This document shows, one piece after another, positions 36,763 through 38,188 of a DNA stretch of 64,000 nucleotides. Source of the stretch: Escherichia phage vB_EcoM_SA21RB; the sequence record OL960580, one strand, 5' to 3'. The position numbers were made by a program, and so were the translations under genes. Within the stretch, counting starts at the first letter, position 1. Every line of letters starts with the position of its first letter. The notes beneath the pieces were generated by a model. It had not been told where the DNA came from. It searched no databases and was given only the letters and a program-made list of their open reading frames with translations.

Positions 36763-36789
36763 AAAAAGCCCAACCTTTCGGTTGGGGCT
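36763..36789 (-). terminator. rho-independent terminator (repeat copy A)
   Basis: minus strand AGCCCCAACCGAAAGGTTGGGCT + TTTTT; near-identical copy at 37321. Confidence 0.7.
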
Positions 36790-36796
36790 AAGAATG

Positions 36797-37270
36797 TTAT
36801 TTGATTTGTTTAGCAGACCAAATGCGGTCTTTGATGATTTTTTGAATGTCTTCAACATACTCTAGGTCATGAGCATGTGGGTTATCTTTGAAACTATAGG
36901 CACGGGCTAACTTTTGGCCTTCGGTTTTGATTACTAAAAGCTCTTTAAGGATAGCTTCATACTTAGCGATAATTCCTTTAACAATATTTTTTTCTTGTGT
37001 AGCTTTAGGATCTGCTTTAGGAGCAGGTTTACCCGAAGCCTTTGCAAAAGCAGCACCAGTAGCAACTAAACTTTTCCAGGCCATACTAACCGCATTTCCC
37101 GTAAATCCTTCTGCTTTCATGTCGCGAGCAAATTGGAATCGTGATTCGTCAGAAGCATCTTTATAGGAATATTTACCTGCTGCAATGGCTGCTTTTGCGA
37201 CAGCTTGAATTTCGGTGCTAGATGCTTCATTTAACACCGCTTCATTTAAAAATTGAGCATATGATTTCAT
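36797..37270 (-). CDS. internal-protein-like protein with capsid targeting sequence
   Basis: 157 aa; N-terminal MKSYAQFLNEAV; flanked on both sides by near-identical terminator hairpins. Confidence 0.55.
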   Translation of the reverse strand: MKSYAQFLNEAVLNEASSTEIQAVAKAAIAAGKYSYKDASDESRFQFARDMKAEGFTGNAVSMAWKSLVATGAAFAKASGKPAPKADPKATQEKNIVKGIIAKYEAILKELLVIKTEGQKLARAYSFKDNPHAHDLEYVEDIQKIIKDRIWSAKQIK

Positions 37271-37320
37271 CTTATTTCCTGTTTTAATTCGTAGATTTAA
37301 TATACTACTATATTTATACT

Positions 37321-37348
37321 AAAAAGCCCCAACCTTTCGGTTGGGGCT
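37321..37348 (-). terminator. rho-independent terminator (repeat copy B)
   Basis: minus strand AGCCCCAACCGAAAGGTTGGGGCT + TTTTT. Confidence 0.7.
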
Positions 37349-37396
37349 AAGCCTTGCGGCAACCTTGTCGGGGTTCCACCTGCTAAGGCAAGTGTT

Positions 37397-37490
37397 TGTA
37401 CGAAACGCCGGGATTCGAACCCGGTTATTAAGCAGTTGACGCTACTTAATATTTTTAAAAGGCCATATCTCGACCATATCCGAACGTTCC
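37397..37490 (-). ncRNA. tRNA-like element / small stable RNA candidate
   Basis: canonical T-arm (CCGGG-TTCGAAT-CCCGG) followed by a 7-nt 3-prime acceptor strand that pairs with CGGAACG about 85 nt upstream, but no regular D or anticodon arm; lies downstream of tRNA-Arg. Confidence 0.3.
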
Positions 37491-37664
37491 GTCAAAAACG
37501 CTACTCGGCTTACGGCAAAGATATTTCCTCGAATCGATAATTCGGTGCGCCGTTTCTGCTGTGGTGTAAGGGGATATTAATAAATCGTAAAGATTTATTA
37601 AGACCAGTCCTTACGCAGGGAACATCAGTCCGACGACTTACCGGTAGCGACCCGGTTTCTTGTT

Positions 37665-37740
37665 TGGTCGAGGCAGTAGGGATCGAACCTACGACCTAGG
37701 ACTTAGAAGGTCCTTGCTCTTCCTTCTGAGCTATGCCCCG
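37665..37740 (-). tRNA. tRNA-Arg (anticodon UCU)
   Basis: hand-folded cloverleaf; anticodon loop CTTCTAA; T-loop TTCGATC; encoded CCA. Confidence 0.85.
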
Positions 37741-37744
37741 TAAT

Positions 37745-37820
37745 TGGGGTGACCGATGGGAGTCGAACCCATGACTACGAGAATCACAATCTCGAGTTCT
37801 ACCAACTGAACTACGGCCAC
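37745..37820 (-). tRNA. tRNA-His (anticodon GUG)
   Basis: hand-folded; D-stem GTTC/GAAC, anticodon loop TTGTGAT, T-arm ATGGG-TTCGACT-CCCAT, discriminator C, encoded CCA. Confidence 0.8.
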
Positions 37821-37934
37821 ATTAATACCTACTCCAACAATCAAGATGTCTTCACACGAAATTAAGAGAAGAGTGATCAGTTCAACCCCGATAATCGCGT
37901 CAAGTAGATATTAATGTGACAGTTGTCACAAATT

Positions 37935-38009
37935 TGGCGGACGTGATAGGATTCGAACCTATAACCAATCGCTTAACAGGCGATCGCTCTGCCATTGAGC
38001 TACACATCC
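37935..38009 (-). tRNA. tRNA-Asn (anticodon GUU)
   Basis: hand-folded; acceptor GGATGTG/CACGTCC, anticodon loop CTGTTAA, T-loop TTCGAAT, encoded CCA. Confidence 0.85.
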
Positions 38010-38013
38010 AAAT

Positions 38014-38100
38014 TGGTGGGGAGTGATGGAGTCGAACCACCCGAGTCGCAATGACAATGGATTTACAGTCCACACCGCTACCTCTACGGGATAACTCCCC
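38014..38100 (-). tRNA. tRNA-Tyr (anticodon GUA)
   Basis: hand-folded; perfect acceptor GGGGAGT/ACTCCCC, anticodon loop CTGTAAA, long variable arm as in bacterial tRNA-Tyr, encoded CCA. Confidence 0.75.
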
Positions 38101-38113
38101 TTAATTCTTAATT

Positions 38114-38188
38114 TGGTGGCCCTGGGTGGAATTGAACCACCATCTGGCGATTATGAGTCGCTTGCTTGAACCTTCCAGCTACAGGGCC
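38114..38188 (-). tRNA. tRNA with CAU anticodon (Ile-lysidine type or Met)
   Basis: hand-folded; acceptor GGCCCTG/CAGGGCC, anticodon loop CTCATAA; lies after tRNA-Thr, where T4 has tRNA-Ile. Confidence 0.8.

Follow-up and report, generated by a model that had tools for sequence, protein, structure and literature searches.

A stretch of 64,000 nucleotides (nt) of Escherichia phage vB_EcoM_SA21RB (record OL960580), referred to here as the window, belongs by BLAST to a T4-like coliphage of the genus Tequatrovirus, its nearest records being vB_VIPECOOM01, teqhad and the slur phages. ARAGORN and Rfam identify 11 tRNA genes on its minus strand, read from 38686 to 37665 in the order Gln, Leu, Gly, Pro, Ser, Thr, Met, Tyr, Asn, His and Arg, with a gap between Asn and His; because the operon lies on the minus strand, 'downstream of tRNA-Arg' means lower coordinates. 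An earlier reading of the sequence alone had pointed to two non-coding stretches in this operon, one downstream of tRNA-Arg (37397–37490) and one in the gap, as possible counterparts of two stable small RNAs of T4, or as degenerate or split tRNAs. We think it likely that both are small structured RNAs, co-transcribed with the phage tRNAs and probably released by host tRNA-processing enzymes, the preferred roles being action in cis for the gap element, here called the His-leader, and that of a decoy for rnaC, to which the first stretch belongs. One transcription unit holds three structured RNAs (rnaD, rnaC and the His-leader), with a terminator at 37348–37325. The principal features, in order of transcription, are as follows.

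37821–37914, minus strand: His-leader RNA, a 94-nt three-way junction immediately 5′ of tRNA-His (covariance model R1, 111.3 bits)
37745–37820, minus strand: tRNA-His (GUG), with U at −1, C73 and an encoded CCA (ARAGORN, Rfam)
37544–37663, minus strand: rnaD orthologue (T4 species 2 RNA), 120 nt, 86.8% identical to T4, starting 2 nt past the CCA of tRNA-Arg
37399–37537, minus strand: rnaC orthologue (T4 species 1 RNA), 139 nt, with a cloverleaf-like plan
37318–37398, minus strand: structured, conserved 3′ trailer, ending in an intrinsic terminator (stem 37348 to 37325 plus a U run; terminator scan)

rnaC and its tRNA-like plan

Over its full length, rnaC of the window matches annotated T4 rnaC at 136/139 bases (97.8% identity). 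The region from 37745 to 37300 is colinear with tRNA-Arg, rnaD, rnaC and terminator of T4 and near-identical from the end of tRNA-Arg to the terminator; the T4 reference order, in the direction of transcription, is tRNA-Arg, rnaD (119 nt) and rnaC (139 nt), beyond which lies the e.8 side of the genome. Boundaries of both RNAs in the window were set by coordinate transfer from the T4 annotation. The same two non-coding RNAs are annotated in RB68, a curated T-even record, and 679 phage records cover at least 80% of the rnaD/rnaC pair. By homology, operon position (after tRNA-Arg and rnaD, before the intrinsic terminator) and conserved structure, the first stretch is the 3′ two-thirds of the orthologue of an RNA already described in T4. 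The suspicion of a T4 counterpart was thus sound here, although the interval proposed took in only the 3′ ~91 nt of the 139-nt RNA, leaving out its 5′ 47 nt and all of rnaD. Both RNAs have been known since the 1970s. RNA-seq, with Northern validation, places RNAC and RNAD among the late RNAs of T4, the only phage from which evidence of expression comes (PMC9697503), and their function is stated as unknown (PMC3014915; PMC12685909). The sole functional hint found for either comes from a T4-like phage under adaptation to a semi-permissive E. coli strain, for which a 2025 study reports one convergent single-nucleotide polymorphism, located in the rnaD homologue (PMC12685909).

The structure of rnaC was compared over 11 sequences: the window, T4, teqhad, L024 and L036 (all five Tequatrovirus), EcS1 (Kagamiyamavirus), KM16, L032, SonariX, Kosakonia 305 and the Edwardsiella phage PEi26, a Moonvirus-like contig related to KM16 being among them. 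The preferred model has four parts.

37530–37536, minus strand: 5′ strand (CGAUUCG) of an acceptor-like stem, pairing with CGUUUCG at 37401–37407 (rnaC positions 2–8 with 131–137)
37465–37524, minus strand: long irregular hairpin arm (positions 14–73), 24 pairs counted, 12 of them changed on both sides
37426–37451, minus strand: 10-bp hairpin, UAUUAAGUAG-CGUCAA-CUGCUUAAUA, with compensatory changes in 8/10 pairs
37408–37424, minus strand: T-arm, CCGGG-UUCGAAU-CCCGG, with the acceptor 3′ strand CGUUUCG directly after it

In this model 95.9% of alignment cells were paired and 22 pairs had changed on both sides, values that 0/500 shuffles matched, and slid controls were ~40% paired. Minimum free energy (MFE) was also lower than that of shuffled sequence (z = −4.1). 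The T-arm is canonical, as the sequence-only reading had it (37424 to 37408, 100% paired across the alignment), with CCGGG/CCCGG replaced by CCUGG/CCAGG in six sequences. The hairpin beside it (37451 to 37426) is likewise real, but has 10 bp rather than the 8 first counted, and its loop, CGUCAA (37436–37441), is invariant in 11/11 sequences. What did not hold up was the acceptor stem as first drawn, in which CGGAACG (37491 to 37485) pairs with CGUUUCG (37407 to 37401): possible in the single sequence, this pairing (positions 47–53 with 131–137) is unsupported across the 11 homologues, being 88% paired with no double changes and with its third pair broken in 5/11. A whole model that includes it reaches 94.2% paired cells and 9 pairs changed on both sides. 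In the preferred model CGGAACG (37485–37491) pairs locally with GCGUUUU inside the long arm, and the acceptor-like stem spans 7 bp including two conserved central U·U mismatches; its five standard pairs are kept in 100% of cases, and one is double-changed, A4-U135 in the five Tequatrovirus rows corresponding to G4-C135 in the other six.

Read in this way, rnaC appears to be a tRNA mimic, with an acceptor-like stem formed from its own ends and stacked on a canonical T-arm, the long irregular arm standing at the place of the D-arm and the 10-bp hairpin, with its 6-nt loop, at that of the anticodon or variable arm. In homologues a conserved 5-nt spacer, AAUUA, separates the CCA of the preceding tRNA from the rnaC 5′ end; in the window rnaC follows rnaD (...CACC plus one base), giving a 6-nt spacer. 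Such a spacer is compatible with cleavage by RNase P at that end. The RNA terminates in ...CGUA-CAA, with no encoded CCA.

A perfect T-arm beside an acceptor-like stem invites a reading of either stretch, or of both, as an unusual, split or degenerate tRNA gene, and one annotation pipeline has followed it: in the Enterobacter phage SonariX the 3′ 95 nt of the rnaC homologue (L006, 854–948) are annotated as 'tRNA-Met', probably a mis-annotation caused by the T-arm together with a spurious acceptor stem. There is a weak match of the first stretch to an Rfam tRNA model as well, the best being tRNA-Sec (RF01852), which scores 17.3 bits (E = 1.6) where the gathering score is 47, with no match to RF00005. 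Yet neither stretch is accepted by ARAGORN or by the tRNA models of Rfam, ARAGORN finding only the 11 true tRNAs in the window and no tRNA model matching the gap; rnaC possesses neither a D-arm nor a 7-nt anticodon loop, an absence already remarked in the sequence-only reading; and the acceptor pairing as first drawn fails in 5/11 homologues, as given above. When the gap was locally aligned with each of the 11 tRNAs of the cluster and compared with shuffles, ten were not above chance, tRNA-His among them (z = −0.14), the highest value being a marginal one for tRNA-Tyr (z = 2.6, p = 0.04, uncorrected for 11 tests). An origin of the gap element as a degenerate tRNA-His was therefore rejected, its alignment being no better than shuffles, and we regard the tRNA explanation as a whole as very improbable. 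In the Rfam scan that had been proposed as a check, neither stretch matches a tRNA family at gathering score.

The His-leader between tRNA-Asn and tRNA-His

The gap in the operon measures 114 nt (37934 to 37821, minus strand), not the 115 first given, and its description as non-coding stands. On the tRNA-sense strand the sole frames, of 37–57 codons, overlap tRNA genes, none of them plausible; antisense frames comprise a 22-codon ATG frame within the gap and two TTG frames (32 and 34 codons) over rnaC. A protein-coding reading of the gap or of rnaC was rejected because only these short or tRNA-overlapping frames exist. The transcribed (minus) strand of the gap contains no sigma-70-like promoter, and by eye the gap has neither a MotA box (TGCTT) nor the late TATAAATA. 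Its structural elements are given below.

37915–37930, minus strand: 5′ hairpin UGUGAC-AACU-GUCACA, between tRNA-Asn and P1, read directly from the sequence
37902–37914 and 37822–37834, minus strand: P1, the 13-bp closing helix, 5′ strand UUAAUAUCUACUU and 3′ strand GAGUAGGUAUUAA
37854–37900, minus strand: P2, ACGCG (37900 to 37896) with CGUGU (37858 to 37854), enclosing a variable hairpin domain with loop UUGAACUGAUCA
37836–37850, minus strand: P3 hairpin, GACA-UCUUGAU-UGUU, whose 7-nt loop (UCWUGAU) is conserved

The gap folds better than shuffled sequence (z = −3.0), and RNAalifold, given nine distinct sequences, returns a three-way junction. Support for this fold was measured in two alignments, A2 (9 sequences) and A6 (15 sequences, fitted to the covariance model). 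In A2, 96.3% of cells were paired and 8 pairs had changed on both sides, with shuffles as high in 0/500 cases for the covariation score and in 1/500 for the count of double-changed pairs; in A6, 92.1% of cells were paired and 12 pairs were double-changed (0/500 shuffles as high). Slid controls were 38–55% paired for A2, and 35–55% over A2 and A6. Within A6, P1 was 96.9% paired, with compensatory changes in 5 pairs, and 4/4 pairs of P3 had changed on both sides. Compensatory changes support the closing helix P1 and the P3 hairpin.

The two halves of P1 are maintained differently: that nearer the tRNA (UUAAUAUU/AAUAUUGA) is conserved in sequence, whereas the distal half covaries (CUACUU/GGAGUAG, CAUUC/GAGUG, CUUUCU/AGAGAG). 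Every distinct leader, folded alone by MFE, forms the closing helix, mostly of 13–14 bp, and of 9–12 bp in W70, SonariX (L006) and REP2. P2 is near-invariant among close relatives and takes the form ACGAU/AUCGU, CGAUAU/AUAUCG or GAGUGU/ACAUUC in diverged leaders, and the domain that it encloses occurs as two interchangeable hairpin types. Paired cells of A2 include 48 G·U against 4 A·C, indicating a fold of the RNA in tRNA sense rather than of the DNA.

BLAST recovered the gap element from 355 phage records, of which 351 cover at least 80% of the query at ~77–100% identity. Identity is 77–87% outside Tequatrovirus, where the element occurs in Karamvirus (EnC15), Jiaodavirus (Mineola), Gelderlandvirus (STP4-a), the unclassified SonariX and two Vequintavirinae-type phages (W70 and A7_1). 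A covariance model built from leader sequences finds one copy per genome, its sole match in the window being the His-leader itself; with filters off it extends to full-length matches directly 5′ of tRNA-His in L038, L040, L041, EcS1, L032, KM16 and L039 (E from 4e-7 to 0.09). Upstream of its His-leader the Salmonella phage KM16 has a second, tandem element (L005, 344–441), the core of which is ~83% identical to the L039 leader and the closing helix of which is entirely different (11 bp, UUUGUAUUUCA/UGAAAUACAAA); on sequence comparison this looks like a swap of the whole helix. No match to the gap element was found in 5,426 E. coli genomes, nor by pattern search in 185,579 species-representative bacterial genomes. 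An origin from the host was rejected for want of any bacterial genome match, and the His-leader appears, across the sequences searched, to be found only in phages.

Presence in an unrelated phage subfamily, the behaviour of element plus tRNA-His as an insertion/deletion cassette and the proximity of homing endonuclease genes in relatives would all suit an element that acts as DNA, be it as an operator, as the site cut by a homing endonuclease or as the terminal inverted repeats that bound a small mobile element. Helices kept by compensatory changes would not be called for in that case, nor would an excess of G·U over A·C cells specific to the tRNA-sense RNA, nor conservation of the internal hairpins P2 and P3 in addition to the outer helix, and a DNA function seems to us scarcely credible.

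At gathering score Rfam 15 contains no match to the His-leader, and a scan of 37250–38020 at E ≤ 10 gives only noise in the gap. A hammerhead ribozyme was considered and rejected: the junction strands are G, GAA and G, which do not supply the CUGANGA/GAAA core, the CUGAUCA that resembles it sits in a hairpin loop and is missing from type-B leaders, and no Rfam hammerhead model matches. Other known ribozymes were set aside in the absence of an Rfam match. A kissing interaction between the P2 and P3 loops (UCAUGA being self-complementary) follows an inconsistent pattern across lineages and is not claimed. The motif G(R)ACUGA recurs in rnaD (37624–37632, GGACUGAUG), in the hairpin loop of the type-A His-leader (37874–37884, UGAACUGAUCA), in the L039 leader (GGAACUGACC) and in the upstream element of KM16 (GGGACUGACC), and UGAAC is common to three otherwise different hairpin types; such sharing could reflect a common ligand or chance. 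Homology between His-leader and rnaD was rejected, the covariance model giving no rnaD match and only the short G(R)ACUGA motif being held in common.

The relation of the element to the tRNA that follows it is strict. In 19 distinct leaders, which cover at least five classified genera, the P1 3′ strand reaches exactly to −2 of tRNA-His, and base −1 is U (37821 in the window). Since tRNA-His starts at G1 of GUGGCCG with U at −1, it has no genome-encoded G−1. Bacterial tRNA-His normally carries an encoded G−1, the main identity element for histidyl-tRNA synthetase. T4, T2 and RB68 have neither the gap element nor tRNA-His, and in T2 and RB68 a spacer of 4 nt connects tRNA-Asn with tRNA-Arg, indicating that leader and tRNA-His form one cassette. 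The second stretch, unlike the first, is therefore no counterpart of a T4 small RNA. As far as sequence can tell, the His-leader is a third, unannotated and new RNA of T-even-type tRNA operons, belonging to no described family tested.

A further link to tRNA-His lies just upstream of P1, where the six bases GUCACA, present in Tequatrovirus and several other lineages, are complementary to U−1 to C5 of tRNA-His. GUCAC, in the 3′ arm of the 5′ hairpin, copies the 3′ acceptor strand of tRNA-His, and the hairpin as a whole resembles a miniature tRNA-His acceptor stem; the complete hairpin UGUGAC/GUCACA is confined to Tequatrovirus and STP4-a, GUCACA alone occurring in the several other lineages. 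When leader and tRNA-His were co-folded, the extended helix reached −57.8 kcal/mol against −55.6 for the modular fold (~2 kcal/mol better). These modelled energies make a switch between GUCACA and the acceptor stem possible, with no implication that it operates in cells.

rnaD, the trailer and neighbouring genes

Homology and a position directly 3′ of tRNA-Arg identify rnaD, which also folds better than shuffled sequence (MFE z = −3.1). Its 5′ 47 nt and 3′ 25 nt are nearly identical to those of T4, whereas the central hairpin has diverged. The same holds over 7 rnaD homologues, in which the 5′ and 3′ parts are invariant and the central hairpin varies freely, so that little covariation information is available. 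A resemblance of its CUGAUG...GAAAC to a hammerhead, noticed by eye, was rejected because the order of the stems is wrong.

The 79-nt trailer with its terminator is 93.7% identical to T4 and folds into three small hairpins and the terminator (MFE z = −4.6), and termination may not be its sole function. In the Dhakavirus phages MX01, IME08 and IME281 (L043–L045) rnaD is joined directly to the trailer and rnaC is precisely absent, whereas in EcS1, KM16 and SonariX (L004–L006) rnaC lies among ordinary tRNAs without rnaD. This separate occurrence across genera indicates that rnaC and rnaD are two independent modules.

Near-identical terminator hairpins (CCCAACCGAAAGGUUGGG core) occur at 36769–36786 and 37325–37348 on the minus strand, each after one of two adjacent minus-strand open reading frames (ORFs). 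Counterparts of both ORFs in a relative belong to phrog_2280, so that the arrangement looks like a tandem duplication of gene and terminator. Many close relatives, among them vB_VIPECOOM01, T2 and RB68, have a 351-nt ORF (phrog_3355, hypothetical protein) between tRNA-Arg and rnaD (L003 1880–2230, L046 152–502, L048 1152–1502), which is absent from the window (site 37663/37664) and from T4.

Compared with T4, the window phage has tRNA-Met(CAU), tRNA-Tyr, tRNA-Asn and tRNA-His and no annotated tRNA-Ile (37745–38188, minus strand). At 30.2 bits, tRNA-Tyr barely clears its Rfam threshold of 29. The queuosine family, which comprises four tRNAs with GUN anticodons, is represented here by three members, Tyr, Asn and His; tRNAs of this family are the targets of anticodon nucleases of the colicin E5 type.

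Probable release, possible roles and known systems

On the explanation that we prefer, release of the RNAs would follow from tRNA processing. The acceptor/T-arm minihelix of rnaC would let RNase P cut at the rnaC 5′ end; an RNase P cut at G1 of tRNA-His would make the 3′ end of the His-leader, and 3′ processing of the upstream tRNA its 5′ end. Helices at the ends of the products would afterwards protect them; shielded from exonucleases by the closing helix, the His-leader would then be a stable RNA of ~95–114 nt. It may act first in cis, a helix holding the 5′ leader of the G−1-less tRNA-His and so setting the site or timing of the RNase P cut, and may afterwards persist as a stable RNA. We hold this first role in cis on tRNA-His maturation only tentatively. 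For rnaC, its tRNA-mimic anatomy suggests a candidate decoy for a tRNA-binding host factor.

Several points weigh against this account. Independent support for P2 and its inner hairpin is slight; A6 is an alignment fitted to the model; and shuffle controls can exaggerate covariation when, as here, a few related lineages supply all the homologues. STP4-a, REP2 and W70 keep the leader with no tRNA-His after it, STP4-a and REP2 having lost tRNA-His and the W70 leader lying between tRNA-Gly and tRNA-Gln; with the second copy in KM16, which is not adjacent to tRNA-His, these leaders argue against a purely cis role.

The same genomes are what might be expected were the His-leader a stable RNA working chiefly in trans, in effect a third 'species' RNA (a protein or RNA sponge, say, or an anti-defence decoy), for which adjacency to tRNA-His only supplies processing sites. 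The fold persists without tRNA-His (in W70 with three compensatory P1 pairs ahead of tRNA-Gln, and in STP4-a and REP2), the tandem copy of KM16 does not touch tRNA-His, the loops are conserved (UCWUGAU in P3, UGAAC in three hairpin types), and T4 RNAC and RNAD set a precedent. Such a role, however, leaves unexplained why P1 should end exactly at −2 of tRNA-His in all 19 distinct leaders and why leader and tRNA-His have been gained and lost together in Tequatrovirus; a mainly trans role is possible, if doubtful.

Alternatively, the element might serve as no more than a point of entry for an endonuclease, RNase III or RNase E for example, or as a folding insulator, splitting a multi-tRNA precursor and having no later role. 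It always lies between tRNAs, in clusters whose spacers are mostly 0–13 nt. T4 tRNA precursors and species 1 RNA are substrates of RNase III. The closing helix can be extended from 13 to ~19 bp by pairing of GUCACA with U−1 to C5, which brings it near the size of an RNase III substrate, for which the stem should be ~20 bp (two turns); P1 by itself has 13–14 bp, and the extension to ~19 bp is lineage-specific. Conservation of the three-way junction and of the loops, and compensation in P3, would also be superfluous in a bare processing stem. We consider an entry site alone unlikely.

A bolder version of the preferred account, which we rate as improbable, makes the His-leader a new class of phage RNA element that fixes the 5′ end of a G−1-less tRNA-His and is then a stable trans-acting RNA. 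The helix would force RNase P to cut one base upstream, so that U−1 is kept, or the switch between GUCACA and the acceptor would gate cleavage in time; the released His-leader would act in trans, for example as a decoy against a host defence that targets tRNAs. If true, this would tie an unusual problem of tRNA identity to a dedicated cis RNA. The strict pairing of His-leader with a G−1-less tRNA-His in any case raises the question of how phage tRNA-His is matured and charged. For rnaC and rnaD, handles are now provided by a comparative rnaC structure with the true 5′ end in the acceptor stem, by the invariant CGUCAA loop and by the independence of the two RNAs. In annotation pipelines the rnaC, rnaD and His-leader regions either stay empty or come out, wrongly, as tRNAs or small ORFs.

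Among known systems T4 is the closest. Its rnaC (T4s001) has the same place and the same fold, with nothing essential different: of the three base differences two fall in the 10-bp hairpin and keep pairing (A-U to G·U, and U·G to U-A), and the third, C/U at position 66, affects a base of the long arm that does not pair. T4 rnaD (T4s002) is orthologous and occupies the same position after tRNA-Arg, the central hairpin being the part that has diverged in the window. The absence of the His-leader from T4 is probably why the element stayed unannotated. Like the tRNA-like domain of tmRNA and like YrlA, rnaC has a large non-tRNA domain besides its acceptor/T-arm minihelix; unlike them, it has no significant covariance-model match, encodes no CCA and has a cloverleaf-like rather than an end-joined layout, and ARAGORN calls no tmRNA gene in the window. 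For the His-leader the nearest parallel comes from spacers of E. coli tRNA operons, from which Lalaouna et al. reportedly described functional RNAs (3′ETS-leuZ and the internal spacer of metZ-metW-metV). Those are short, Hfq-dependent base-pairing sponges, whereas the His-leader is a closed three-way junction, phage-specific and with no E. coli match; it is likewise a spacer in a polycistronic tRNA transcript, the ends of which would come from tRNA-processing enzymes.

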